In this document: positions 2,140 through 31,222 of the stretch, piece after piece | Numbering within the stretch: position 1 is the stretch's first letter | Layout of the letters: the number at the start of each line of letters is the position of its first letter | Assembly: GCA_010093745.1 (NCBI GenBank) | Contig: MU006014.1 | Coordinates: 62,001-93,222, forward strand | DNA from: Piedraia hortae CBS 480.64 | Lineage: Eukaryota | Direction: 5' to 3' | DNA: 31,222 bases | Position numbers and translations under genes: made by a program | Notes under the pieces: model-generated | Database searches by the model: none | What the model saw: the letters and a program-made list of their open reading frames with translations, nothing else | What the model was told of the DNA's origin: nothing

Positions 2140-3848
2140 GCCGGGCACGTTGAATGACGATGAGAAAGAGCAGTTTGAGAAGGTTTGGCATAAGGAAAAC
2201 TTCGCCGTGTTCAAATATGAGCATCGATAAAGTGGGATAGGAGCGGGGTGCATGCATGAGCCTACTGTTAGCGTGTATGAGCGGAATCCACGAATGAGGC
2301 ATATCATAGGCCTCATTTTATGCATGTGTCGTAGGCATGTGCAGGCTAGTAGACGGGATTATCCCGGCTAGATTACCTGGTAGAAAATTGGAGACATCCT
2401 GCAGAATGACCTTTACGTGTAACATTGACCACAACAGACAATCGCAACACCTTGTTCCTTCTAGGTGAGGACGAGGCTTTCATTTTCCACAAATTTAATA
2501 CCGATTGAAAGCCAAAAGGGGGGGCATAATAAGTCTCTTGGTAGCATGGTAGTAGAAATAACATCGTCTTTCGCGTCACCCTCCCATTTCTATTCTCATT
2601 ACTAGAATCGGATACATCACGTGCGGGCCCCCCCTAACCACAGCGTCGGACGCACTTGCTGTGAGGCTGGTCCCCGCATTTCGTGTTTTCATGCGTTTCT
2701 CTTTTTGCTACGAATGTTGTGCATTAGAAGTCTTCCCCACTGCGTGCACACTTTTGATCACCATTTCAAACGCAAATAGCACCACACACATCCACTCCAC
2801 ATAGCAGTGTACTATATTTCTCGAAAGCGCTTCCTCTAAGGTTTCATGTGGTACTCTTTTTGATGGTTAGCGATTCCATCGGAAGCGGGAATGTTGTGAT
2901 TAATGCCAAAACGCGGTCTCGCACACATGACGACCCTAAGCAACCATCTCTGGGCCAAGGCGTATGAGGCACCGACCGCTACAATCTTAAAGATATTAGC
3001 TTTCTTGTTAATCTTATTTGAGGCGCGCGCGACGTCTGGGCGCGGTGGGTCATCGATTCAAAGTTGATGAAGTCGTTACGATATCGGCACGACAACTTTG
3101 AATCGACACAACAGATCGCATAATCATCGCAAACGACCATAATTACATGAATATGAACGCTGCAATGAATGGATTCCGATGATATGCACCGCAAAGATTG
3201 AATCCGTTTTCATTGTGCCCTTTTGCGAGGTTTGATCATGCGCGAAATGGTCTTCGAAACTCGCGGAAAATTGGGCCATAAGCTTACGAAAACCTACAAA
3301 AAAAAAACCGGAGGGATATGATCTTCAAGGTATAGCCTTCTGCCTCAATCAAGTTGGAAACGTTTGAGTGTCGCGCTACATCGCTCGAAAATCGGCGAGT
3401 TTGAGCGATTTCGATGTGGCTTTCGCGGGGAAGCGCGGGGCGGCACCCCACGTCTAACGACACCTCACGCCAACGCCACGTCCAACCGCTTGTGCGATAC
3501 ATGGATGACTCTCGTCTCTCCGACACTGTAGGCAGTTCAAATACGTCAATCCTGTTATCTTTGTGCCTCGAGAGTCCTTCGGAAGGCAGTTGGTAGAATG
3601 GCAACTCCTGGTACCCTAGCATAAGACGCGTCCAGAGCGACCATAACATCGGGACGGGATAAATTGCCTGTCCCGGGTCTTCCATACAAACAACTACATC
3701 TGTAACAGAGAATAAGATTGCCAGGATGAGTAGATGCATGTAGATGTTCATATATAGCCATTCCTGCCGGTCCATGTTCCGTACAGACGGTCTGTTCTTC
3801 TTTTCCCACTCCGTAGTTCTTCCATACCGCTTCCCATCTCTTGTCATC

Positions 3849-4706
3849 ATGGACGCTGCCCTTAGTGAACCATATGCTCTGGTCGAGAATGGCATCAAGC
3901 CAAACTTCGCGGCTACCGCCAAAAAGCATCTGGTCAATCGTACAACCTTGTACAAACGGTCCCAGGGCCTCACGGCGGATCGCGACACCGCATTGGAGGC
4001 GCGCAGGAGCCTGTCAAAGGAGCAATCAGAGGCGCTGGTCAAGTACATCAGCTTCATGTGTGACTGGTGCTTGCCTCCCTCGCTAGCCATCGTGCTGAAG
4101 CTGGCGCAAAGCATCTGCCAGCAAGACCTTGGAAAGAGCTGGCCCGATTGGTTTGTGGAAAGAAACCGAAAGAGCCTTGATTGTCGGTACATGAATGGTA
4201 TTGACCTCTTGCGTCATAAAGCCGACTCTCGCAAGAGCTACCGGGCCTATTTCGAGGTGCTGGAGAAGATTCAGGGCCTAAAAATCCAACCAGAAAATGT
4301 GTACAATATGGATGGAAAGGGGTTTCTCATTGGCAAGGGCCAGAAGATAAAGCGGAGATTTGCCCGCAACCATTACGAGCAAGGCCGACTGATTGGAGCG
4401 GGCCAGGATGGTAACCGCGAGTGGGTTACTGTTATGGCCACCATTTGCAGAGACGGAAACACGCTGCCGCCAACTGTCATCTATGCTTCGGCCTCGGGCA
4501 CCGTCCAAGACAGTTGGGTGGAAGAGTCAGACACCGGCAAGCATACGGCGTACTTTGCGGCGACGAACGGTTGGACCAACGACAAGCTAGGCTGCCACTG
4601 GCTCATCCGTGTTTTTGACAAGGCGACGAGTGGCCAGGCCAGGCGTAGGTGGCGGCTGCTGCTCGTGGACAGCCACGGGCTGCCTGCTAGTCCTTGGCAA
4701 CCATAG
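3849..4706 (+). mobile_element. Truncated Fot1/pogo-family (Tc1/mariner superfamily) DDE transposase remnant
   Basis: N-terminal HTH region (AATAKKHLVNRTTLYKR, LSKEQSEALVKYI, LGKSWPDWFVERN), VYNMDGKGFLIG (family consensus NMDEKG), QDGNREWVTVMATIC, TNGWTN and RWRLLLVDSH (consensus DGH). Homology stops at ~4680, before the third catalytic residue. No TIRs identified. Confidence 0.9.
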
Positions 4707-5476: not shown

Positions 5477-5572
5477 TCCTGTTGTGAATATGCCGTATAT
5501 AACGCGCATTATTAGCAATCGGTGCTCGGCTCTCGACTTGACGCGTCAACTAGTTTTCCATAGACTTGTATG
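5477..5572 (+). repeat. Dispersed direct repeat, copy 1 (pairs with 31125-31222)
   Basis: Hand alignment to 31125-31222 gives 9 substitutions plus one 2-nt indel over 98 columns. Weaker similarity extends ~120 nt to the left in both copies. Confidence 0.92.
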
Positions 5573-7977
5573 CTTACTGGTACACATCTACTCACAACTA
5601 TAACACATCCTCCATGAGGTGAAAACCCTTGAGAGTCCAGTGCCCTATCTACCTAAGGCAGGCGTCTGACACTTTATCACCCTTGTGCACGTATTTGCGC
5701 GTCTATCATCGTGAAACAGAATACATACACATAACAGCTTACAAAGCCAGACGGAACAAAGTCCGCAGTCCGTCAAACGCCTTCTTTTTAAATGATCTTT
5801 TCCGACTTTGCATGTGCGATGCGATGAATATGTTCATTCTATTCAGCGTTATCGGAAGAATGATTCGTTTTGTCAGACTATTGATTGAGGAGGGCCTTGT
5901 TGTGAATTTCTGGGCGGAAAAGGGCTGGTTGCATCGACTAGGTGAGCCGCACCATGTGACTTTCTAGTCGTGTCATACAGTGCCATGATGACACCTTCGT
6001 CTGATATGTGAAGTCCAAGTGCAGACAAAGCCCACCCAACACACCCAACTCATCGTGCTGGACGGCGGACAGTAGTCTCTGCAACTCGACAATTAGTTTC
6101 AAGAATAATCTTGCTGGGAGCAAAAATATTGCCTCCACCTGGCTATTAAGCCTCATTGAGGCGGCTTGTCTAAATATTCGCTGGAAGATAGGACGGTACC
6201 TGTCGGAGCCTATGACATGGGTTGCAGGGACATTCTTGTCTCCCCCAGGTTTCGTCCGCCGGTGCGATGCAAGCATCCCACCTTGTGTTCTGTTTGGTCT
6301 ATGCTTTCATGTAGATAGAGACCGACCCCCAGAGGATCGGAGTTATCGGCTTGGTTGTGCATTTATCTCCCTTTATCCTGAGGAGCTCACTCACTCGCAG
6401 AAGATCTCACTGTAGACGCCCTTCATTTGAGGAATAAATTATGTTCGACCTGAGTTACGGGCTCGCAGGCTTGAATCGTGCTTACAGAACGCTGAAGGCA
6501 GGCCATGATCTTATGGATCAGTCACAGCTGTTCGAAGACACCTTGATTCAGTTGTTAACCGGTACTTCCAAAATACCCTTTCCTCATGCTGGGGGCGATA
6601 TGTTTCTTCTGAGATTAGGGCAGGGGCGAATGAGATTGGGTGTCTGCTTCGTTCCTGGTTTCACAATAGATGATATGTCAGTGCAGATCTGCCACCGGTC
6701 ATTGTAGGAGTGCCTTGGCTAGAAGTAGTATCCATACCTATGAAGATTTTGATGATAGTGGTACTTTAGCGTGGCGATGGACTGCAAATTGTAAAGAGTG
6801 AGACGGTAGAAGAGTGTTGGAGTCAAGCATCGCCGCTAACGCGTATTCGCGACACTTACATGACAAGTCAACTATACCTCCTAAACTACCGGCTGCACCC
6901 TAGGTTTTCCCCTTACAGATATTTTCCCTCAGGGTCATGTCATATGTGAAATGGCGAATGTGCCCTGCTAGTGTACGACGTGACGCCACCGGCCCACAGG
7001 TATAGAGTATTTATTCTGACGTCCCCTCACAGATACATATTGTTCTAATAAGTAGCGGCACCTCACAGATGTGTCAGTATACACGCTTATCTAGAGCTAC
7101 GCAAGAATATTTCTGAGTACTCGAATCCTGGTCAGGGATGTGGGTCATCACCTGCGGATCGCTCCGTGGCGACCTGCACAACACATATAGTCATTCACAC
7201 TGTCATATCGACACCGGTATTGACTCCTAACCACCTGCATCTTTCCTATCCTTGTCGTTGATTTCCTTCTACCGCTATGTCCTTCTATTTCGGGCCGCTG
7301 CGCACTTCCATCCGCGAGAGTACTATCGCTACACGAACGGATACAGAAACCGGGACTTAAAGCCGAGTGGAACTCAGCGGGGACTAGAAATGACTTATGA
7401 CAATCAAATACCCGCCGATGGGAGCTTAGCCACCGATCTGGCACCAAGCAGAATCATTCCTTCCGAGAGGTGATCATGGCACACCCAGCATCGAAGTGGT
7501 AGAGCGTTTTTCCATCATTCTTGCTCCATCTAGGGTTGACAGCGAATATGACAGCTCCAAGACACTTGACACTGAGAGTGCATTCGCCACATGGCAAGTA
7601 TGAGCTTGGCAAGTCCGACCTGAATCGCGGGGAAAAGTCAAGGGAGTCAATCTGCAACATTTTGCGGTGTATCGGTATATATTCACATGATCCTATCAGT
7701 GAGGCTTCAAGTCAACCATATACTCATGTCGCCAATGCATGATTTATGAAAACTTATCTCTGGATGCTATCCTCCATTCTGCATAGACAAAGGACTTAGT
7801 ACTCAGAACGCCATAACATAAACAGCAAGGCTGCGCCTTCCAATTTCATGTTACTATTCATTGGCCTTTATTTCTCCCATAATTACCGTCGGACGTCTAG
7901 AACTCACAACAACCAGGATTTAGTCGTATTATTAACAAGTACGTCTTCCAAGCGGAGTCGGCTAACTGAGTCATCCT

Positions 7978-8049
7978 TTGGGGATTCACCGTCACTCAGT
8001 TGAAAACGTATTACATCAGCAAGAGAGGAAAACGTTCGTGTTGATACGA

Positions 8050-8092
<43 letters not shown>

Positions 8093-8739
8093 ACGACTTT
8101 ACATCCTGGCCTCGCCCAACAGCCAGATTCCAACGCCAACATCGCCATGACCCCACTGCCGATGGCTCACCTGGATGCAAGTTTTCCCCTGTTGTCGAGC
8201 AATCACGTCAGTCCTGCATCTCTACTCAGTTCCTCCAATCAGTTTGCCCAACCAGCTTATGTTAGCTACATTCCATCGTCACATGATTCCTCATTGCACC
8301 CAGCTACGTAGATGTACACAATGCTCCAAATGGAACGCCTGGTAATGGAGTTGTCCAGCCAGCAGGCCAAGTGCCTGGACGACTACATGTCGACGAAAAG
8401 GACTATGAGGATCTGCTAAACAGTATGCATTTCAAACGTATTGTTCGAGATATGACAAATGAACAAAATATTGTCGGCTTACATTATCTTACCCTCCTAA
8501 GGTACATCGGGCCTTAGATTTCAGAATCCGCTTGGTTGTCAAACGCTCTCGACTTAATGCGATTCTTTCAACTAGTGCTAGGAGATCCGTACAGCCCCCA
8601 GCGTCCCGTCCAACTTCACGACGAGGGCCGCAATGACCGGGAACTTAGGATGTACCTTGAGTACGTATTTACGCGAGACCAACATTTGGTGACGTCGACT
8701 GAATTCATGCTAATTTTACGAAGTGTACACTGTGGCTGA
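7978..8739 (+). pseudogene. Unknown-domain family member A (subtype 1), disrupted
   Basis: One frame with internal stops at 8263, 8284 and 8515. 8401-8739 reads DYEDLLNSMHFKRIVRDM...RYIGP*ISESAWLSNALDLMRFFQLVLGDPYSPQRPVQLHDEGRNDRELRMYLEYVFTRDQHLVTSTEF and aligns to the first domain of 11260..13023. The 5' boundary is uncertain. Confidence 0.8.
8052..8089 (+). repeat. C38 homopolymer
   Basis: 38 consecutive C counted directly. Confidence 0.97.
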
Positions 8740-9462
8740 AGAACAAGCATGGGGATATATCTTGATGCTCGCTGGGTGGGGGTCCATTGGATATGGATAG
8801 AGATAAGGGTTTTTGGTTGTCAGCGGATCGTACTGCAGGTATTTCTATGAGGTGACCGATCTCAGTACTGTGGATCGTCGAGGTAGATAGAACCGTAAGA
8901 ATCTTCAATTTCGTTGTGTTGCTGTGCCTGTCTGGGATTGCCACTCGATAACTGTACTCAACTTACACCCCAGATTCACAAACCCCTCTTTCTTCCTTGT
9001 AAGTATTCTATTCATCTCGCCAGATATTTCTCCGCGTATCTCGACTTGCCACGCAACATCCACAAAGTCACACAGAGGTATCCATTCGTTACAGTATGTA
9101 GTCATACCTGATGCTTGGCCCGTACAACCGCTTTTGAACTCTCTTGGTCGGCTACAACGAGACATTCAAAAACAGCAGAATAAAAGCATGGCGTCGCTGT
9201 GAGTCCTGTTGAGGTGATATTGAATCTAGGGTTCAAGAGCGATCCCTTACCGTTCAATCTCATTCCTTCGAAAATAGTAGACGATGCCTTAGGGTCACAC
9301 CGCACTTTCGTCGATTCACCGTAGAACGTCGAAAGGTTGTAATGTCCATAGTCACACCACCTTCCAATTTCGTGGTTTACTCATTGACACAGGTCTTTCG
9401 ACAATTTCAGACAACATGATACTTCTGTCAGCTAAAATTACTCAGTACCGTTCTTAGCATGC

Positions 9463-10332
9463 TTGCCTCTGAAGCGACGAAAGGCTACCCAGTTGCCTAC
9501 TTATAAGTCAAACCGCACGAAGAAAGAACGCATTGCAGCGCCAGAAGAAGATGGTGTCCGTGTAGAAAATGAAATTGCTTCAACTTCGCAGCCACGTTCG
9601 GCCCCACAGCCAAATTCAGACCCCGCCTTGCCCACGACTCCAAAAACGGGATATGTCATAGGTGCTAATTTCCACTCGACTTCGAACAAACGCGACAGTT
9701 CCGCTTCTTCACTTAGCTCATCAAATCAGTTTGGCCAATCTTACCCGGCGCCCTACACCCCGTCGCGTGACCTCACTTGGAACATCAAAATGTTGAGGGA
9801 CTCTAATGTGTCTAGAGGTCCATCTTCAATCAGTCCATACTATTACTCTATTGAATCGTCGCCGATGCCTTGAATATTACCCCATAGTACACCTGTGGAT
9901 TCCCGTGTTCAACCCTCGTCGAGCCCTCCATATGGTATTGCTCAGCCTTCCTAGCCACCCCAGGGCCAGTCCCACGTGACCACTCAAGACTACTCACCAC
10001 ATGCGGGCTACTACTATCTACTCATTCACCCCTGAATCATTTTGGTTTGGATTAATGAAGGAATCCATGAGTTCCTGGATGCCATAGCCTACCTCAGGGC
10101 CATTGGGCCTTGGAAACGAGATCCCTACTGGATGGATCGCGCCTGCGCCATGATGCTGGAGCTTGAGAAATCAGTAAGAGAACCGTACTTGATCGAGAAT
10201 CTTAAGAGACTCCACACATTAAGCTAACACGGTAAAGACTCGAATGTGGACCTTACGTACGTGTTCGAAAGACATGTAAGCCTAGCAAAGTCGGCGCAGT
10301 TCCGTCGCATCGTGGCAGAAGCTGCACGGTGA
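9463..10332 (+). pseudogene. Unknown-domain family member B (subtype 1), disrupted
   Basis: Single frame with internal stops at 9871, 9952, 10033 and 10225. N-terminal SSASSLSSSNQFGQSYPAPYTPSRDLTWN matches SASAFSPLNQLDQPASAYVTPPRVSTWS of 11260. C-terminal LDAIAYLRAIGPWKRDPYWMDRACAMMLELEKSVREPYLIENLKRLHTLS*...TYVFERHVSLAKSAQFRRI matches its first domain. Confidence 0.85.
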
Positions 10333-11259
10333 CCACTCTTCAAGAAGCCAGAGGGATCATGAGTCGTGCTTGCCTGGATGTTTGGCGTATGCTAGAAGAA
10401 AAGTTTCTGTGGATGGCGAAGAGGATTTCACTTCTAATCGGCACGAATTTCCAGTCTTTCTGTCGAAAAAACGTGGATTTTCCCCCATATTATTCAAATG
10501 GGATTGACACAGTTCATTTCTTCGGGGTAATCCAATACCAGAGTGATGCAATTATTGGGAGAGCCGAGAAATGGCCAATTGTAGACCTTTACAACGATTT
10601 TGTGCCACTCCATTTTCCTGGCACATTCTTTTTATTCCTCCCACTGGATTTATTCCTAAATAATCATCTTTCACGCAGAATAAGAACCATATCTCGTGGG
10701 TAAGGAAATAACATTGTAGATCCTGTTCTACCCCTTAAGTGGTTGACTCGTTACAAAAGAGTCGCATTACTCGATTCAGATGATATATTCGTGTATCCAT
10801 CACTGTATTTCCACTCAAGACTACGTTATCTTAGGACCAGACAGGTATAACTGGCGCTCTCGTAGGATAATGCTGTCAATCGTTGCCCAACATTCCGCCC
10901 AAGTGGTCACAAAAGTACCACGTGTGGTTCTAAATGTTAGAGTATGGGCATGTGCTGGGCATATAATGCGTAGCGACATGTGGGTGGATGGACACAGGAA
11001 GTGAATCATTAGCCAGCCAAACATATGTCTGGATGCTGTCCTCGAATATGAACAGACAATGTGGCCAGATTTGAGGACACCATAACGTAAACACCATGGC
11101 CACACCTTCCCATTTCCTGACATTACTCATTGGCCCACATGTCTTTCAACACTTGGTGGACATCCTGATGTTTCAAGAGAGGCAAAAGCGCTCGATTATG
11201 TTCCGAGCTGATATATAATTTAGGCATCGAAAGTCTGTTGAGTCGTTCTCCGAGATTTA

Positions 11260-13023
11260 ATGTGGAGCAACCAAGAATACAATTTATCATCGTCAGGGAG
11301 AGATTTCCAGCGCGAACATGGACTGGCATCAAGTTTACAGCCAAATCTCACCCAGCAACCAGATTCAAACCTCGCATTGTCCATGACTCCATGGACAGAA
11401 TTTGACTCAAGTGCCAGTTTCGACCCAATTTTGAACCATCACGGGCAATCTGCTTCTGCATTCAGCCCATTGAATCAGTTGGATCAACCGGCGTCGGCTT
11501 ACGTAACACCACCTCGTGTCTCCACTTGGAGCACTAATATGCCGACAGACACGAGTGCAAATCGAGATCTCGTTTATGCCCTCGATCTACCTGATCACTC
11601 AGGCCAAGTCTCTCTAATACCGGCTAATTTCAATATGCAATCTTGCTCCCTTGTGAATGGAATTGCTGGTCTTTCTCCCAGTCCAATCTATCTTTCTGAC
11701 CAACCGCCACAAATTTCTGACACACGATTCCATGGTTCGTCTGCGTATCCGAACATGGGGACAGATCCAGCCATGGATGGAGGTACTGGTCCTCTTCTCG
11801 GTCCAATCCATTCCTCTGGACAACCCTTGTTGATACCTTCCCACGTAACCCAGAGTTCGTCTTTGAATCCCAGTCTTCCATTTTTTTCGACAACTCCAGA
11901 TGATATTGCTCAGTCTCATCAATTACCTAGTGCCCAGTCGTTCTTGACCACCAAAAATGGCTACTCCCGTTCCCCTCAACCACCAAACGACCTAAGCCAA
12001 GGCAATGGCGTCCCTCAACCCTTCTCCCAAGCACCGACGACTCCAGAAGACAACAAGGACAACTTCGAGGATCTACTCCACAACCCTTATATCAAATGGA
12101 TTGTTCAGGACTTGATGCGCAATCCAAGCCTTAACTCCCTGGATGCAATCATCTTCTTCAGGGAAATCGGTCCTTGGGTACCGAACCCTCGCTGGATGGA
12201 TCGCGCCCGTTTCATGATGCAAGTGCTCGAGACATCAGTCGGACAACCGTACTCGATCGAAGATCTTGAACGAGTCCACCAATTGAGCTTCTACGTTCGG
12301 GGCTTACATGTGTGTATTACCTACGTATTCGACCGACAGCCAAATCTGGTGAAGGCGCCGCAGTTCCGCTTTATCTGGGAAACGGCCGCTTCATTAGCTA
12401 CCTTGAAATTTGATACCGACTTGAACCGGCCCCCGAACTTGACCAGCCAAATCAATTCGTCTCAACGCCCATTATCAAGCTTCAACTCCCAGCTGCCTCC
12501 GTATACTCAAACAAACCTCAATCCACAGCTACATTCATCATTCAGCATCTTTACGGAACCTTTCTCAGCAAGCGATTCCAACCACCCGTATGAAGGGCAA
12601 GATATAAGCAGCCTGACAGAGGATGCAGATGCAGGCACAAGAGAGAATGGCAATAACGACGACAGCGGCGAAATTCCAAGCCTCTCAGCCCTCTTCACAT
12701 CAATGCTCAACTACATGGTCGTTCGGCACAATCTGACTTCTGAACGAGACTGCCAGCTCCTCGAGAGTGCTATTCCTTGGAATCCAACACCTGACTGGAT
12801 AGCCCCAGCCATGCAGGCAATGGAACTACATTACGTAAGTAAGGGTTATCCTTACGACCCAGAAAATCTCAAGATGCTCCACAGCATGAGCCGCACTTAC
12901 GTCAATCTGCGCAAGTGTCTAGAACTGGCGATCTCACGACATGGGTCGATAATGTTCACACCTTCGTTTGCAATTCTTCTGAAATTGGCGGGTGAGGTGT
13001 TAGCTAATGGGCAGGATGGGTGA
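11260..13023 (+). CDS. Unknown-domain family member C: 587-aa protein with long S/P/Q-rich disordered region and two domain copies (subtype 1 then subtype 2)
   Basis: Uninterrupted 587-codon ORF. Domain copies at ~12058-12390 (IGPWVPNPRWMDRA...GQPYSIEDLERVH) and ~12673-13010 (IPWNPTPDWIAPAM...KGYPYDPENLKMLHSMSR). Confidence 0.85.
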   Translation: MWSNQEYNLSSSGRDFQREHGLASSLQPNLTQQPDSNLALSMTPWTEFDSSASFDPILNHHGQSASAFSPLNQLDQPASAYVTPPRVSTWSTNMPTDTSANRDLVYALDLPDHSGQVSLIPANFNMQSCSLVNGIAGLSPSPIYLSDQPPQISDTRFHGSSAYPNMGTDPAMDGGTGPLLGPIHSSGQPLLIPSHVTQSSSLNPSLPFFSTTPDDIAQSHQLPSAQSFLTTKNGYSRSPQPPNDLSQGNGVPQPFSQAPTTPEDNKDNFEDLLHNPYIKWIVQDLMRNPSLNSLDAIIFFREIGPWVPNPRWMDRARFMMQVLETSVGQPYSIEDLERVHQLSFYVRGLHVCITYVFDRQPNLVKAPQFRFIWETAASLATLKFDTDLNRPPNLTSQINSSQRPLSSFNSQLPPYTQTNLNPQLHSSFSIFTEPFSASDSNHPYEGQDISSLTEDADAGTRENGNNDDSGEIPSLSALFTSMLNYMVVRHNLTSERDCQLLESAIPWNPTPDWIAPAMQAMELHYVSKGYPYDPENLKMLHSMSRTYVNLRKCLELAISRHGSIMFTPSFAILLKLAGEVLANGQDG

Positions 13024-14020
13024 AACAGTAGTTGAGAGATGGAAATGATTGCTAATTGGGATTGAATAGTTGCCATTATAGGCACGTATTACCAGTTTCA
13101 GGCACATGAATTCTGCTGCTAGATGTATTGTGATATTCAGTTATGATCATGGGCAGGTACATCTGGTGCCCACCATCTAAATCTCGCACAAACTTGAGAT
13201 GCAGCATCTGAAACTCAGAAATGTGCCCTGGGTCTAGATAGGGTGCCTGAGGCTTTGCAGTATTTCTTTGCCTGGCCTAGGAAATTCCTCTGCGATGAGA
13301 ATACGACATCGTATGGTCTGGGCAAATGTGGTCCGGCCCATAGTGGGTCTGTGGGGCATGATCCTAGCGTCAGTGTCAGAAGGATGTGGCACCCACCATG
13401 ACCAGAACTATAAACAGAAGTCGAAACTTCTCAGGGTTTTTACCTCTATAGAGGAAGTTTTCCCTGAGTCGGGTCATTGTCTCGTTCATGCTTAAGGGCA
13501 TGGCTCGCTGACGTTGTCCTGGCAAATGCGGTCAGAGTGAGGTAGTGTGGGGAAGGTTTCGAACGTCACCTCATATAGATATAGACATCTACATTTCACT
13601 TTTTCAGTCAAAGTTGAGTGAAAACTTTTGTCGCCGAAATCCGCTCTCCTTTAGTCCTCGGAGGTTCACCCCTCCAACAGAGCGGTATAAATTGTTTGCA
13701 AGTATGATAATTCCAAGAAATTGATGAAAAACATGGGGTTAACAAGTGGTTCTTTGAGAGTGGAAGGTGTGGCCATTGTACTTACGTTTATGTATTCCAC
13801 ACGCTGGAACCAAAGCGATGGCGGGGCGGAAGCGATATAGTGCGAAGCCGCTTATATCAGCTCGTTGAACATTCGCGACACAACCTGATCAAGCACCGGA
13901 GTTCACGCTCTAGAAAGTTGCAATACATGCCCCAAATGGCATTCCAATCTTATCCACAATCCAACACCATCTCCTCCTCCAGATGCGGACCCACCACACC
14001 CCGTCTAGTTTGACCACATC

Positions 14021-14758
14021 TCAAGATCCCGCCTGTTCTTTTGCGAGTTCCTCGCCCGCTTTTTCCAAAATGTCCTCGAATTCAGCAGATTCCATCAAAG
14101 TCCCATGTTGCGCGACAACCAGTTCAAGACACACTCTCAAATCAACGTAATTCCGGCTCATATCGTGTAGCTTCGCGAAATACTCCGGCCTGTACGGATC
14201 TCCCTTTGACTTATAAAGCTCCTCCATCGTGTTGAGGGCAGGGGCCATCCAGTATGGTGCTGAAAACCAGCATAAATCTTTCGCAAGGAGCCGGCGGTCT
14301 CGATCGGAAGTGAGATTGTGCTCAGTGGCCATGTAGTTGAGCATGGCTTTGAAGAAGCCTGCGAGAATTGGATCCTTGCGGTCATTCTCATGGTAGTTAT
14401 TCTCCAATGTGTCCGCAAATGTGCCCTGTTCCTGGTTGCTGGTGACAACTGGGCCAGGAAATGAACTTTGTTGGTCAGACGAAGAGCCAGGACTGCTTGA
14501 TGAATTTGGCTGTGAAATGTGGCTGCACTGAGTATGCGAATATGGCTGGATGTTGGGGCTTGACGATGACCGTCGTGACGGAGTGAGCGGCCCGGTCAAG
14601 TTCGAGGACGACTTTCTGTCGGGATAAGTCATCCAAGTCGAAGCCGTTTCGCTCTCGCCGCAGACATATTCTTGATCTGATAGATTGTCATGTTTTTCGT
14701 CGCGTGAATCTGCATCACCGGAGTGTGACTCGTTGAAGTTTTCAAGTTTGGGAGGCAT
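14021..14758 (-). CDS. Unknown-domain family member D (subtype 2), 245 aa
   Basis: Intact ORF with a Ser-rich N-terminus. The C-terminal MLNYMATEHNLTSDRD...WMAPALNTMEELYKSKGDPYRPE...LHDMSRNYVDLRVCLEL is clearly homologous to the second domain of 11260. Confidence 0.85.
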   Translation of the reverse strand: MPPKLENFNESHSGDADSRDEKHDNLSDQEYVCGESETASTWMTYPDRKSSSNLTGPLTPSRRSSSSPNIQPYSHTQCSHISQPNSSSSPGSSSDQQSSFPGPVVTSNQEQGTFADTLENNYHENDRKDPILAGFFKAMLNYMATEHNLTSDRDRRLLAKDLCWFSAPYWMAPALNTMEELYKSKGDPYRPEYFAKLHDMSRNYVDLRVCLELVVAQHGTLMESAEFEDILEKAGEELAKEQAGS

Positions 14759-15374
14759 GATTGCTGAACACTGTAACTAATGGATACTGTATCTCTTTGT
14801 GCCTTGGTAAATTTTGAGTGGTGAATTGACCAGAACCGCGAGAGATGATGTCCTTTGGGATGAGTAATCACCCGAGGACGGAAAGAGGGTCCATGAGCCT
14901 GGTTGTGTACTTAGGTAAGTTGAGTACAGTCATCGAGCAGAAAATATATCCCTTGGAATCAAAGCTACGCAAAATGTATGATGTGCAGCTACCAACAAGA
15001 TGTTTCTCGTAGTCGCCTCTGCTAATATCTGGTCGTGTCAGTTCTTAAGATGCTGGCTGGGGTGCGCTAACGCATTGATTCAAGCGATACGAACGAGTAG
15101 AGCCGTCATGGATGGTCGAGTGCGAAGGTATGCATGTGATATTCACGTTGTGTTGATTTCAATACTGGATTTCAAGGCTTAGTAGGACCAGAAAAGTCCG
15201 AAACCAGTTGAATTCTCTCAAGAGTGGAACAGTTGTGCCATGATTCATCAAGTAGCGATGTTCACAATCTGAAAAATTTGCAACACGTGCCCAAAATGGC
15301 AATATTCAATCTCTGACCCATAGCCCCTTTACATTTATACCCCAATCTCCCACCTCATCAAGCTCGACCATATA

Positions 15375-16154
15375 TCATGACGCCGCCTCTTCCCTTTTCC
15401 GTGCTTCATCCGCAATTGTCAAAAGCTTCTCAAGAAAAGTTGATCCCATCAATAAATTCCCATATTGCGAAAGTATTAACACTAGACACTTTCGCAGAGC
15501 AAGGTAATTGCGGCTCGTTTCGTGCAGCTTTTCAAGGTTTTCCGGCTTGTAAGGTTCTCCCTTTGATTCATAAAGCTCTTTCATGGTGTCGAGGGCAGGG
15601 GGCATGTAGCGAGGTGTTGGATCCCAGGGAAACATACTTCGAAGGAACCGAAGATCTTGTTCCGAAGAAAGATGGCTTTTGCGCATCATTCTGATAAGAA
15701 TTTCGTCGAAATAGTGGCCGAGGGATGGGTCTCCGCTGTTGCTGTCACTGTCGCTGCCGCTGCCGCTAGCCTCATTTGTGTCAGCCAATGGTTCTTTTGC
15801 TTTATTGCGGATGGCAGCTGGGCTTAGGGGCGAATCTTGCTGTCCCGCCGAAAGGCTGGAGGTAGAAGGGCTACGTCTAGTCTTTGTGAGCGGCTGAACG
15901 TTGCCGCTTGATGTTACCCGTTGCGATGGAGTGAGTGGACTGGTTGAGCTTAAGGGCTACTTCAGGTTTGGTATAATTTGTAAGATCGACTCCTCTTCAA
16001 TCAAATATTTCTTGTCTGATAGGTCGCCCTCCTCAGTTGAGCTGCCAGATTGTTCCTTTCTGAGCTCTTTGTCATTGTTTCCCTTGTCTATCGGATCGTC
16101 CATGTCATATGAGTCGTCAGAGGATATCTCAACGACATAAAGTTTGGGAGTCAT
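15375..16154 (-). pseudogene. Unknown-domain family member E (subtype 2), single in-frame premature stop
   Basis: ORFs 15957..16154 and 15375..15788 are in the same frame, and the only internal stop is TAG at 15957-15959. It is collinear with member D (MTPKL vs MPPKL; SPLTPSQR vs GPLTPSRR; SKGEPYKPENLEKLHETSRNY). Confidence 0.8.
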
Positions 16155-16551
16155 ATTGTCCCGAATACTATGACTGATGATATCTCTTCAAGATTTTATG
16201 GAAGTCGCGTTGTAACTTGACCAGGACCATGAAGGAATGTATATTCGCTGCATGACTAATTACCTGAAAACCGCAGGAGGAAGCTGAAGACGTAAGCTAA
16301 TTACAGTCATCAAATGTTGGTGAAGTTCATCTTTATCGCTTGGTGGAGAGACCAATATTGTGGGACTCTCGGAACCGTCGCTAGATGCATCTTCGGAACA
16401 GATTGATTAATTGACTCTCAGACAACGGCAAACTCTCGGACGCTAGTGGATACTCAGAATTTGACAACTTCTAGATGCTTCCACAAGTTCAGCTTGATCA
16501 TGTGAATTACCACTGCCACCTCTGTCCAATCACTGCAAGCTGTCATCCAGG

Positions 16552-16578
16552 CATCCACTAGCGCGGCGCTAGTGGATG
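16552..16578. repeat. Perfect 13-bp inverted repeat with 1-nt spacer
   Basis: CATCCACTAGCGC-G-GCGCTAGTGGATG read directly. Confidence 0.9.
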
Positions 16579-16646
16579 TGCAAGAGTCGTCATCTTACTA
16601 AAAACTTTTACAACTTTAACTCACTCATCAAACAGCAACATACACG

Positions 16647-17372
16647 ATGAAGATTTTTACGACATTTCTGTGGCTACTTACATTCATAACAGCTATCCAC
16701 GCTCTCGCACTTCCCGTCACACTTCCTGAATGGTCAGCCTCATCGAAAATGCTTGTGAAGCGAAAGGGGGGAGGCGGCGGTGGTGCTCGAGGAGGTGGCA
16801 GTACCAAGGGACAAGGTTCCTCGTCGTCGAGAGGTGGTTCCGGAAAAAGCAGCTCCTCTTCTGGGACCAGAGGCAGTGTAACTTCGGCAGAACATCCAAC
16901 GTACGGCAGCAGTGGAAGATTTTACGCCGGCGGCTCATCTTCGCCTTATAAAGCCGGTAATCGCAGCCCAGTAGGCTTAGTGCCTGTTTTTATCGAAGGT
17001 GCTGCCCTTGGTACTCTCGGTGGTGCCTGGCTCCACGGTGCCTACGCCTACTCATACCCTCGCATGTGGGATTACCTCAATAACACATCTGACAGACTTG
17101 AAATGAGGCCAGCAAAATGTTTATGTGCAAAGGATGCCGTCTGTGGCTGCGACTACTTCGCAAATTCCGGCTACATGAATCAGGTGGCCAACAACAAGAC
17201 GCTCAGCCGCGTCGCAAACTTCAACGACACAGACACGCTCTTTATCAACGGCACCCTGACTGCCAGTACATCGCACAAATCGTCTGCTACAGTGTTGAGC
17301 CTTGGTCCTGCAGGGTTGGCAGGCTGGTTGGCCATATTCTGGGTTGCTATGTACACAGCATCAATTTTTTAG
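16647..17372 (+). CDS. Secreted Gly/Ser-rich, probably GPI-anchored cell-surface protein (intronless paralog of 23587..24385)
   Basis: Signal peptide, KR (Kex2-like) site before the Gly-rich tract, YAGGSSSPYKAG, CLCAKDAVCGCD, N-glycosylation sequons and a hydrophobic C-terminus. Confidence 0.88.
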   Translation: MKIFTTFLWLLTFITAIHALALPVTLPEWSASSKMLVKRKGGGGGGARGGGSTKGQGSSSSRGGSGKSSSSSGTRGSVTSAEHPTYGSSGRFYAGGSSSPYKAGNRSPVGLVPVFIEGAALGTLGGAWLHGAYAYSYPRMWDYLNNTSDRLEMRPAKCLCAKDAVCGCDYFANSGYMNQVANNKTLSRVANFNDTDTLFINGTLTASTSHKSSATVLSLGPAGLAGWLAIFWVAMYTASIF

Positions 17373-17992
17373 ACTTATGGTAAGGCTTGGGCCTTGTAGA
17401 AGTATCAAAAGTTTTGTTTGTATGTAACTATCAGTTGCTGGTTGGGGGCTCCGGCCCTGCAGATAGAAAACCAAGGAAAAGAAAATTCTTTAATTCATTT
17501 ACGGACCACTGTTATCTTGATCCCACTGTACCATACATCTGTTCCGCACAGGTGCCAACGAGTGTCCAGAATTTGACATACTTCTGGGAGATTCCACAGG
17601 TCCGGTCACCCATGAGGAAATAACATCATCATCCCTATGCGCCAGCCCTGTGTCAGTCATTGGCCTCGTCAAGGATGTTGGTAGTGAATATAGGAATGGG
17701 AGGTGACACGAAAAAACAATGTTGTTGTTGCTACCTGTCTACTAAGACTCTAGAGGAGATGAGTTTATTGTAGAGATTTGGCTCTCGTGGGTGAGAGTGC
17801 GCAGCGACCCGAAGAGGACGGAGCGATAGACAGAATCAGGGACAGGAAAGATGTAGATGTATGTGAGTCAAATACCAGTTGCAGCATGGTAGTGTGAATG
17901 ACTATTTGCAATAAGGGGACGTTCAGAATGAAAATTCTGCACCAGTAGGCCGGTGCCGTCACGTCGTACACTAGCAGGGCGCATTCACCATG

Positions 17993-18846
17993 TCACATAT
18001 GACATGACCTGAGGAAAAAACTTTGTGAAGGAAAAAACCTAGGGTGCAGTGGTAGTGTAGGAGGTATCGCTGACTTGCTGTGCAAGTGCCCCGCATACGC
18101 GCTTGCGGCGATGCTTGAATCCAACATTATCCCGGTCAGCGCTTGACTCTCCTCAGCATCACGGGACTCCGAGTTCTCCTTTTCCAAGTGATTTTTGGAA
18201 TCACGAATTTCTGCCTGCTGTTTTTCCTGGCGCTCAAAGATGCTGCCCAGCATAAGCATGGGCGAGTTCTTATGTCTCATTAGATTTCAGTGTTAGTGCT
18301 ACCGCAGGATTCAACCTACCAGCTTCAAGAAGCATCGTCCCCGCCAAGATGTCGATCCCTGGATTGCAGGACGGGATGTTGACGGCCGGGAAGATGACCA
18401 TGACTCCCTTCTTTCTGGAGACTTCTATATTGTACTGCACCGCCTTCTTGATGATGAAATTCTTGACACAGCATCGTCTTAAAGTGGGGTTCTAAGTTTT
18501 CCTCCATCATCTTGATTAGCATGACCCTGTACAAATGACTATTCATCTTCCCGGACATCAACCACGACTTCTCATAGTTGACCACCGTGCTCGTCAATAC
18601 GTTGTGTGAAATCTTTATCATTTTCAACTAGTCCACGACGGACAAGATCACCGACATTTTCGACATGTTAGACAAGCCCCCGTTCATTAACTCAAAGTTC
18701 TTTCTTCGTGCCTTACGCTCTTCCTGGGCCCGCTTGAACTCTTCATTCTTCGTCAGAAACTGCTCATTTAGTTTCCACAACCGGCGAATTCAGGCTCTTT
18801 CCTGTCCTTTTGCCGTCATCTCACTTAGAGCTCGCCCCGAGACCAT
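17993..18846 (-). pseudogene. Probable decayed gene with charged, coiled-coil-like segments
   Basis: ATG 18846 is in frame with ORF 18325..18627 but two stops intervene (…KNEEFKRAQEERKARRKNFE…). An intron-like GTAGGT...CTAAC...AG stretch near 18275-18320 may link it to ORF 17993..18280. No family recognised. Confidence 0.3.
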
Positions 18847-23297: not shown

Positions 23298-23586
23298 GAT
23301 GTGGTGGTATGTGGAAAAATGGGAGGAAATCGCCGTGTACCCCGCGGTGGGGTGAAGTCGTGCGTGTACGTGTGCAAAGGGTGTGCAGTAGCCTGCAGTA
23401 GCGTGAAGCGCCATTGAGAGAAATATCCCTGCGCGATCAACGTTACGTCGGTCCGCGCCGTTGCCATCTGCATGGATCTGCAGGGCCGAAACCCTCAACC
23501 CAACCCAACGAGTATGATAATACAGTTACATACCTATTATAAACTCGTTTTGGATACCTTTAAATGGCCCAAGCCTTACCATAAGT

Positions 23587-24124
23587 CTACAACATCAATG
23601 CGGCGCACACCGCGACCGAGACGACGGCCGACCAGCCTGCCCCCTCTGCAAGGTCAGCTCGTAAATTTGCAGCAGACGAGACGGCATGCGAGACGGCAGA
23701 CAGGGTGCCGTTAACGAAGAGTGTGTTCGTGCCGTTGACGTTTGCAACGCGGCTGAGCGTCTTGTTGTTGGCCACCTGATTTATGTATGTGGAATCTGCG
23801 TTGTTGTCGCAGCCGCAGTCGGCATCCTTTGCACATAAACACTGTGCTCGCCTCGTTTCGTTTCTGTTAGACGTGCTGTTGTGGTACGTCCACGGGTGCG
23901 GATAGGAATAGGCGTAGGCGCCATAGAGCCAGGCACTGCCGACAACACCAAGCGCAGTGGCTCCGAGGAAAACAGGCACCATGCCTCCTGGGCTGCGACT
24001 TCCGGCCCTGTAAGGCGAAGATGCGCCGCCACCGTAGACTCCGCCGCCACCGCCGTACATTGGACGCGTTCCCGAAGTCCCAGATGAAGAGCTTGAACTA
24101 CCGCCTTTCCCAGTCCCTCCACTG

Positions 24125-24169
<45 letters not shown>

Positions 24170-24385
24170 GAACCGCCTCCCCTAGCGCCACTAGATCCAC
24201 CTCCGCCTGCACCGCCTAAAAGCGTCAGTTGGGGTATTCGGACAACCGCCGCACGCACCTCCACCCTTTCGTTTCCACAGCGTTTTCGACGAGGTTGCCC
24301 ATTCGGGAAGCGTCGCAGGGAGCGCTAGAGCGTGGATAGTTGTTATGAATGGTAGTAGCCACAGGACCGTTGTGGACGTCTTCAT
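23587..24385 (-). CDS. Secreted Gly/Ser-rich, probably GPI-anchored cell-surface protein (intron-containing copy)
   Basis: Exon 1 24259-24385 (signal peptide, WKRKGG), a 43-nt intron 24216-24258 (GTGCGT...CTGAC...TTTAG) and exon 2 23587-24215 join in frame to 251 aa. Contains CLCAKDADCGCD and a hydrophobic C-terminus. Confidence 0.9.
24125..24166 (+). repeat. (GAC)14 microsatellite encoding poly-Ser on the minus strand
   Basis: 14 perfect GAC units counted directly. Confidence 0.95.
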
Positions 24386-25114
24386 CTTGTAGGTTGTAGT
24401 TTGATAGCCAAGTGATTGCCCTTATAGCCTGGATGGCAGGATGCGGGGTGGCAAGTGACATCATCCCTGACCAACCCCGCCTGCGAGGCTAAGCACCAGA
24501 GACTCAACTGCGCCATCGCTAAAGCTACAGCCGAGGATGTTGGTTGTGGGTCTGAATACGAGCCTGATGCTCAGCAATGTGACTCTGGTTTGACCTTCGG
24601 TCAATCCCGGTCAATGCTGAGTGGTGCCAACGGCTTCCTAGCACGTACCCGTGGGGTTGTCACCCAAGTAGTTTTGGAAGTCTTTCAGACAGCCATGCTC
24701 GTAATAACGTCCATGATCATAGACAAGCTGACGATTAGTCTCGTTGGATGTGCAATGTAAGGATTAGGATGTGTTTCTACACAACTATGTAGTTACTGTA
24801 TACTGTCGAGCAACTGTCGATGCCCTACTCATGATATAGGCCTATCTCAGTTTAAGTTGAGACTAGAATCAGCGTAAAGTAGCCACTTTGATTCTCCGTA
24901 AGCGATTGGAACCACTGAAAGCTGATGCAGAGTGTGGCTGATGGCTGATATTTTCTATGTTATCGTTTTATGGATGGCAGTTGAACGAAGATCGGCACAC
25001 GTAGACAGCAATACACTGAGCTCTTGATAGAGTGTTGATTACCATTATCCAACGGGCAGACACCATTAAGCCCATTTACTCTACAGAAATTTTATCCATG
25101 ACCCGGGCGCTTGA

Positions 25115-31124: not shown

Positions 31125-31222
31125 TCCTGTTGTGAATATGCGGTATATTACGCGCATTATTAGTAACCGTCGCTCGGCTCTCGACTTCACGCGTCAACTA
31201 GTTTTCCGTAGAGATTTGTATG
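31125..31222 (+). repeat. Dispersed direct repeat, copy 2 (pairs with 5477-5572); runs off the right edge
   Basis: See copy 1. Similarity is still present at the last base of the window. Confidence 0.92.

Follow-up and report, generated by a model that had tools for sequence, protein, structure and literature searches.

A multi-copy gene family of Piedraia hortae whose helical domain probably derives from the N-terminal region of Rco1/Cph2

The PHD proteins Rco1 (Saccharomyces cerevisiae) and Cph2 (Schizosaccharomyces pombe) are described as subunits of the Rpd3S and Clr6S histone deacetylase complexes (PMC10374167, PMC10709384). Among known conflict systems, the lineage-restricted and amplified Dox family of the Drosophila simulans clade is reported to carry as its sole folded domain an HMG box taken from a chromatin protein, protamine, and to have a drive phenotype and hairpin-RNA suppressors (10.1101/2021.08.05.454923). 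The wtf spore killers of fission yeast are described as multi-copy genes with many pseudogenes that lie by solo long terminal repeats (LTRs), whose homologues elsewhere were at first unknown, and that have several introns and several membrane spans (PMC5478263). In Neurospora, the genes doc-1 to doc-3 are presented as linked, diverged paralogues in a rearranged locus that are subject to balancing selection and encode proteins of 828-920 amino acids (aa), two of them with predicted membrane spans (PMC4831770). Here, we describe a gene family of the hair-colonising Capnodiales fungus Piedraia hortae (PMC7082219), strain CBS 480.64, that invites comparison with all of these. The window, meaning the whole stretch of 31,222 nucleotides that was analyzed (GenBank assembly GCA_010093745.1, contig MU006014.1, positions 62,001-93,222, forward strand), contains five of its genes, A to E, which together hold six copies of a ~110-aa domain (A, B, C1, C2, D and E; Table 1). 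The family is real, old and species-restricted, and sequence comparison makes it likely that its domain descends from the N-terminal helical domain of Rco1/Cph2.

An earlier note on this DNA could assign the domain to none of the families it knew, which no longer holds, as hhalign traces it to the Rco1/Cph2 N-terminal helical domain with good if not complete confidence. The lead was the most diverged family copy, at 257 kb on contig C12, which gave a weak match (E 0.18) on C11 in a genome-wide search. The C11 gene (P0024) encodes a 932-aa double-PHD protein whose nearest solved relatives are Cph2 and Rco1, and which is itself an Rco1/Cph2 orthologue (E 1e-73 and 6e-64). When 75 orthologues (P0024-P0098) were chosen by their PHD region alone, 68 of these filamentous-ascomycete Rco1/Cph2 proteins were found to share a conserved helical domain, located at residues ~175-250 of P0024 (C11:336626-336916), that corresponds to no Pfam family and is unmatched in yeast Rco1 and in Cph2. 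The family profile (A3) aligns with these 68 Rco1 domains at an hhalign score of 95.5% (E 1.5e-8) over 69 columns without a gap, and the window copies alone reach 90% (E 1.6e-6, 71 columns), a score that holds without the 257k copy or without this genome's own Rco1 row. The aligned part comprises the last ~70 residues of the family domain, i.e. its last five helices (3-7), and the positions in common include a G-x-P after helix 3, the serine closing helix 4, an L-x-x-L-L-E, and the phenylalanine and alanine of the last helix. As controls, a reversed alignment scored 0.35%, the best of 100 block shuffles 8%, and, of 29 windows along these proteins, the 25 outside residues 121-300 at most 0.6%. 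Of the 68 proteins, which are ~1000 aa long, 64 have the top match of the family profile inside the Rco1 domain, and in the reverse search, over 121 kb of six-frame translated DNA, the Rco1-domain profile puts six family copies first among its eight matches. Rco1 domains from the Capnodiales score highest with the family profile, with a median of 20.5 bits as compared to 3.8-11.4 in four other groups. Outside the window's family, a 380-codon frame at C4:26831-27970 (+) opens with a basic cluster and a stand-alone Rco1 domain that scores 27 bits, the rest being a disordered tail, and no PHD finger was found within the 8 kb examined; this separate copy indicates that the domain does escape in this lineage.

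The family and the Rco1/Cph2 orthologues have in common the gapless five-helix match and long disordered regions, whereas the family has no PHD fingers, carries two additional helices at its N-terminus together with a PWxPxPxW segment, and is multi-copy and species-restricted. A PHD1-linker-PHD2 profile built from the 75 orthologues reached no more than 0.2 bits in the 121 kb that contain all 13 known family copies, versus 255 bits at the parent gene, and neither the Rco1 N-terminal motif nor its conserved C-terminal region was found near any family copy. The absent PHD region rules out membership in the Rco1/Cph2 PHD proteins themselves. We propose that the helical domain near the N-terminus of the Rco1/Cph2 orthologue was duplicated without its PHD fingers, and that the freed domain would have acquired two N-terminal helices and the PWxPxPxW segment before splitting into types I and II. 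It may then have spread by tandem duplication of a I-then-II unit, with later deletions, the fusion that gave gene C, an inversion at one solo-LTR-like repeat and the decay of about half of the copies. The products would be soluble proteins, each a disordered arm with one or two ~110-aa helical binding modules, that would most likely bind the kind of partner bound by the Rco1 domain as free adaptors or competitors and, being unable to read histones themselves, would tune deacetylase targeting. Such a role is the natural guess, because a docking domain that lacks a histone reader would bind its partner but not bring the deacetylase to nucleosomes. If descent is granted, we consider it slightly better than an even bet that the family still acts on the Rco1/Rpd3S pathway, while the whole explanation, escape from Rco1 combined with continued work as binding modules or decoys, falls a little short of even. 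The suggestion in the earlier note that the family is possibly nuclear gains support from the probable chromatin-protein origin and from basic N-terminal clusters in the intact C12 members P0018 and P0011. Under this explanation, what looked like an orphan family would have a traceable origin in a domain that left a conserved chromatin complex, and this in a genome with otherwise few genes. The comparison also exposes an unnamed conserved domain of filamentous-fungal Rco1, and the natural stand-alone versions could serve as a means to find that domain's partner. As a process, partial duplication with subsequent birth and death is already well known. A literature search at the level of result listings found no description of the Piedraia family or of the Rco1 parent domain.

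Several observations weigh against this explanation. Identity to the Rco1 domains is low (median 10-21%, best 30%), and as the lead came from a genome-wide search, scaling E by ~10^4 genes gives, by our own estimate, ~1e-4 for the family profile and ~1e-2 for the window copies. The hhalign score is only 47% for a three-sequence alignment and 76% for type I alone, and 8 of 14 domain rows, including C1, C2 and E, fail to beat shuffled sequences on the Rco1 profile. In a joint tree the family groups with Botryosphaeriales rows (support 98) and not with this genome's Rco1, a placement that is probably long-branch attraction on 66 columns. The invariant tryptophan, PY and histidine of the family are not Rco1 residues, which suggests that the binding surface, and with it the partner, may have changed, and since yeast Rco1 and Cph2 are unmatched, the function of the parent domain cannot be inferred from them. 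No clear basic cluster is seen at the N-terminus of C, D or E, and although D and E are covered by RNA-like contigs, these are three short contigs of low depth from one run whose RNA label is a guess. One could instead read the Rco1 likeness as convergence of amphipathic helices, the domain being either a genuine orphan or a distant peptide-binding bundle of the MLLE kind. We regard this as improbable, as the ungapped 70-column match survives the reversal, block-shuffle and other-window controls and is recovered in both directions. The domain is confidently predicted to form seven helices, with AlphaFold predicted local distance difference test (pLDDT) scores of 93 and 86 and a helix layout that is alike in both types, and a natural comparison is the seven-helix MLLE3 domain described for Ustilago Rrm4 (PMC11572963). 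However, none of 15 family rows matches PF00658 (MLLE) at E<=1, the single match in the genome is not a family copy, and hhalign against the first exon of that matching gene gives 0.04%. Comparison with the MLLE fold yields root-mean-square deviations of 3.2-4.8 and scores that lie within background and are tied with unrelated rows. By sequence, with no PF00658 match, the family does not belong to the MLLE domains. Separately, the near-identical repeats of a metagenome TPR protein (L022:2920-4338) agree with domain D at 16 of 24 residues in the region of helix 3. This 24-column likeness, to a protein that had itself been chosen by the search pattern, was judged to be probable chance; the family has no TPR match in Pfam.

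The six window domains are homologous. They lie within a few codons of the positions first proposed, as seen by six-frame translation and by tblastn with C and D, and their alignment requires one short insertion and contains six invariant columns. Leave-one-out profiles score each copy at 66-119 bits, versus at most 14.6 bits in 1000 shuffles each, and the motif described earlier is matched at 11 of its 18 positions in A, 15 in B, 16 in C1 and D, and 17 in C2 and E. The arms reported as rich in serine, proline and glutamine are so, with these residues making up 30-37% in C, D and E. What had been described as a local cluster is one as regards the five genes and six domains, but the family is not confined there: the genome contains at least 13 copies, six in the window, six on C12 at 257-289 kb and one on C12 at 54.9 kb. 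This count is a lower bound, based on a genome search with seven single domains and one whole member, and on a profile search over the 121 kb of DNA. A tree separates two subtypes (support 81), type I comprising A, B, C1 and the C12 copies at 289k, 272.7k and 275.3k, and type II comprising C2, D, E, the C12 copies at 273.8k, 269.5k and 54.9k, and the 257k copy; the types are homologous (hhalign 99%). Searching 1.84 billion protein representatives with the profile returned eight matches, seven of them from this genome, and no credible copy elsewhere, which agrees with the proposal of a lineage-specific family. No Pfam family, fungal effector domains included, exceeds its cut-off in C, D, four window domains, P0011, P0018 or P0019. 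A transposon-derived domain was likewise rejected for want of such a match, while the same scans did detect DDE_1, gag and RVT in neighbouring frames. The ratio of non-synonymous to synonymous divergence (dN/dS) is 0.24-0.52 in all 12 pairs, as expected from the proposed past purifying selection, and the bootstrap interval of pN/pS lies below 1 in 11 of them. The earlier note had named a known Pfam or transposon-derived domain, or a dN/dS near 1 coupled with unexpressed intact members, as grounds for abandoning its view; no such domain was found and dN/dS is well under 1. Its picture of intracellular proteins under birth-and-death evolution, with no signal peptide or transmembrane segment, is supported by the partly broken copies and by the lack of a hydrophobic N-terminus; the top 19-residue hydropathy is 0.4-1.6 across seven proteins, the 1.6 occurring in the last helix of C2.

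With values of 0.9-3.2, synonymous divergence (dS) between copies marks the duplications as old, and this raises the prospect that the domain came from Rco1 but has since changed or lost its job, the copies turning over near-neutrally in LTR-rich regions with no Rpd3S link left. Such turnover would fit the breakage of about half of the 13 copies, a selection signal that is old, the key family residues that differ from Rco1 and the repeated loss of either partner of the I-II unit. We nevertheless hold it to be unlikely, as frames of 587, 539, 245 and 219 aa remain open at such dS, the fusion in gene C has been kept in frame, and RNA-like contigs lie over D and E.

Shared promoter and 3' remnants point to an ancestral I-then-II unit. 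Type I and type II upstream stretches recur across the cluster (Table 1), in places with no corresponding gene behind them, and a 3' stretch is common to C2, D and E. The linker of gene C is homologous to the 5' coding part of D (12413-13015 matches 14625-14032 at 61%), and on C12 the order along one strand is 275.3k (I), 273.8k (II), 272.7k (I), 269.5k (II). The simplest reading is that a two-gene unit, type I then type II, was tandemly copied and lost one partner in several repeats, that gene C arose by in-frame fusion of a type I and a type II gene, and that an inversion occurred at the 306-bp repeat. Among the matches listed, this repeat has 41 (40 scored of 231 candidates genome-wide), 40 of them at >=90% identity; we call such repeats solo-LTR-like on the basis of their TG..CA ends, copy number and adjacency to gag and reverse-transcriptase frames on C12, rather than of a curated library. 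No signature of repeat-induced point mutation was found. Within the C12 cluster, a 257-codon frame without a Pfam match (C12:275680-276450, +) overlaps the end of a solo-LTR-like repeat.

A conflict role, such as the allorecognition or meiotic drive brought up by the earlier note, is possible but conjectural; the comparisons covered one genome, and no second strain was found. The I-then-II order, which recurs in gene C, in two C12 pairs (275.3k/273.8k and 272.7k/269.5k) and in the promoter remnants, could mean that the types form a linked pair, e.g. poison and antidote, in a selfish or non-self-recognition system made from a chromatin domain, as in Dox. Type I copies are the more often broken (4 of 6), with lone type II domains mostly open, rapid turnover by solo-LTR-like repeats resembles that described at wtf loci (PMC5478263), and a chromatin-derived driver family is on record in Drosophila (10.1101/2021.08.05.454923). 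We think such a pair quite doubtful, however, as duplication of a two-gene block yields the same order without any functional link, the intact type I gene P0018 stands alone on C12, the 231 repeat candidates make repeat proximity mean little, the proteins have no membrane-spanning or catalytic feature, and the copies are highly diverged rather than young. Should the two types form such a pair, they would represent a fungal selfish or recognition locus of a new kind. Compared with the described systems, the Piedraia family is like Dox in its probable origin, a lineage-restricted and amplified family with one folded domain from a conserved chromatin protein, but differs in domain and kingdom, and its copies are far more diverged. 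It resembles wtf in being multi-copy with many pseudogenes and in having TG..CA repeats near the cluster (at 6815, 13374 and 17768), but has neither the several introns nor the membrane spans, and on the hydropathy values above membership in wtf is ruled out. With doc it shares linked, diverged paralogues in a rearranged locus, but no sequence link was seen, and membership in doc was rejected. A broader version, in which the linked, free Rco1-derived types constitute a fungal conflict system built from an Rpd3S fragment, one type disrupting targeting or being watched by a NOD-like receptor (NLR) and the other neutralising it, also seems improbable; were it correct, it would be a fungal counterpart of Dox and give the unnamed Rco1 domain its first function.

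Receptor genes do lie close by. The window opens with the 5' part of a NACHT-WD40 gene (1-2358, -), and the genome has 40 NACHT matches, of which 37 exceed the cut-off, while this protein finds 58 matches, at ~49 loci that often contain stops; for 16.9 Mb this is a large expansion of NLRs. The family copies could conceivably be decoys that mimic a chromatin target of parasite effectors, with the adjacent NACHT-WD40 receptor sensing any change to them. Both clusters adjoin a NACHT-WD gene (in the window at 1-2358 and upstream; at 279.8-284.5 kb on C12), the C12 54.9k copy lies 9.4 kb from a NACHT relic, and a distance of <10 kb for both clusters and the singleton has p ~0.06 each if the 49 loci are evenly spread. 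That null is too generous, as repeat-rich stretches are where NLRs as well as young genes accumulate, and fungal NLRs are reported to be unevenly spread (PMC12258605). Moreover, the NLRs next to the two clusters are no close relatives of each other (59% identity, 28th row of 58), and 25 kb separate the C12 257k copy from the nearest of the listed NACHT matches. We consider guarded decoys very improbable, and continue to favor escape of the Rco1 domain.

As regards gene integrity, two intact and three broken genes had been counted, none with an intron. Genes C and D are indeed single open frames, and A and B are broken, but E may be intact, because its public gene model (P0017) removes the in-frame stop with a 51-nt intron at 15940-15990 (GT..AG, weak donor). 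Gene D aligns without a gap through this stretch of E, which suggests that the intron may be a rescue by the predictor, and no RNA contig spans the site. The NLS-like PLKRRK attributed to B does occur in its frame, but no in-frame ATG precedes it; the first is at 9790, and the one at 9459 lies in another frame. DNA run X1, from which the assembly was possibly made, has no alternative letters over 8101-13401 and 13651-17207, and the gene breaks are thus in the DNA. A run of 38 C at 8052-8089 lies just 5' of gene A; the run X1 contigs break there, and its length may be uncertain.

Table 1. Features of the window cluster, in window coordinates
Feature	Coordinates	Strand	Remarks
Domain A	8398-8736	+	type I
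Domain B	~10036-10329	+	type I
Domain C1	12061-12393	+	type I
Domain C2	12673-13002	+	type II
Domain D	14048-14383	-	type II
Domain E	15402-15734	-	type II; frame open across domain
Gene A	8147..8739	+	type I; broken by a frameshift that lies between 8287 and 8311 and by an internal stop at 8515-8517
Gene B	9436..10332	+	type I, broken; stops at 9871, 9952, 10033, 10225; nearest kin C1
Gene C	11260..13023	+	intact, 587 aa; disordered arm, type I domain, linker, type II domain; apparent in-frame I-II fusion
Gene D	14021..14758	-	type II, intact, 245 aa; RNA-like contig 14327-14575; model pLDDT 93
Gene E	15375..16154	-	type II; stop in frame at 15957-15959; two RNA-like contigs, 15254-15510 and 15543-15910
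Type I upstream non-coding stretch before A	7750..7875	+	71% identity to 11019-11144; z 30 vs shuffles
Type II upstream remnant, no type II coding sequence behind	8944..9095	+	aligns to 14770-14937 (-), z 24; no matching frame after
Type I upstream stretch before B	9339..9458	+	aligns to the stretch preceding C, z 15
Type I upstream stretch before C	11019..11208	+	shared with region before A
Type I upstream remnant downstream of D	13719..13801	-	z 10 vs shuffles; ends 40 nt before repeat
Type II upstream stretch before D, recognisable also before E	14770..14937	-	z 10 with region before E
High-copy repeat, TG..CA ends, solo-LTR-like	6815..7333	-	inverted copy of 17768-18126; piece of another repeat inside; depth ~1200 vs 13
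306-bp repeat, TG..CA ends, solo-LTR-like	13374..13679		sits where gene orientation flips
High-copy 360-bp repeat, TG..CA ends, far side of cluster	17768..18126	+	inverted counterpart at 6815-7333

The remainder of the window contains several other features. A relic of a DDE_1 transposase is located at 3744-4706 (+), and an 88-bp repeat at 5477-5564 is 91% identical to 31125-31212 at the contig end. A 2.6-kb RNA-like contig covers 18050-20725, where no frame exceeds 184 codons, and has a minus-strand intron at 18268-18320. Beyond gene E, the genes at 16647-17372 (+) and 23549-24405 (-) form an inverted pair with 75-79% DNA identity, the first of which encodes a DUF7732 protein that is hydrophobic at both termini.

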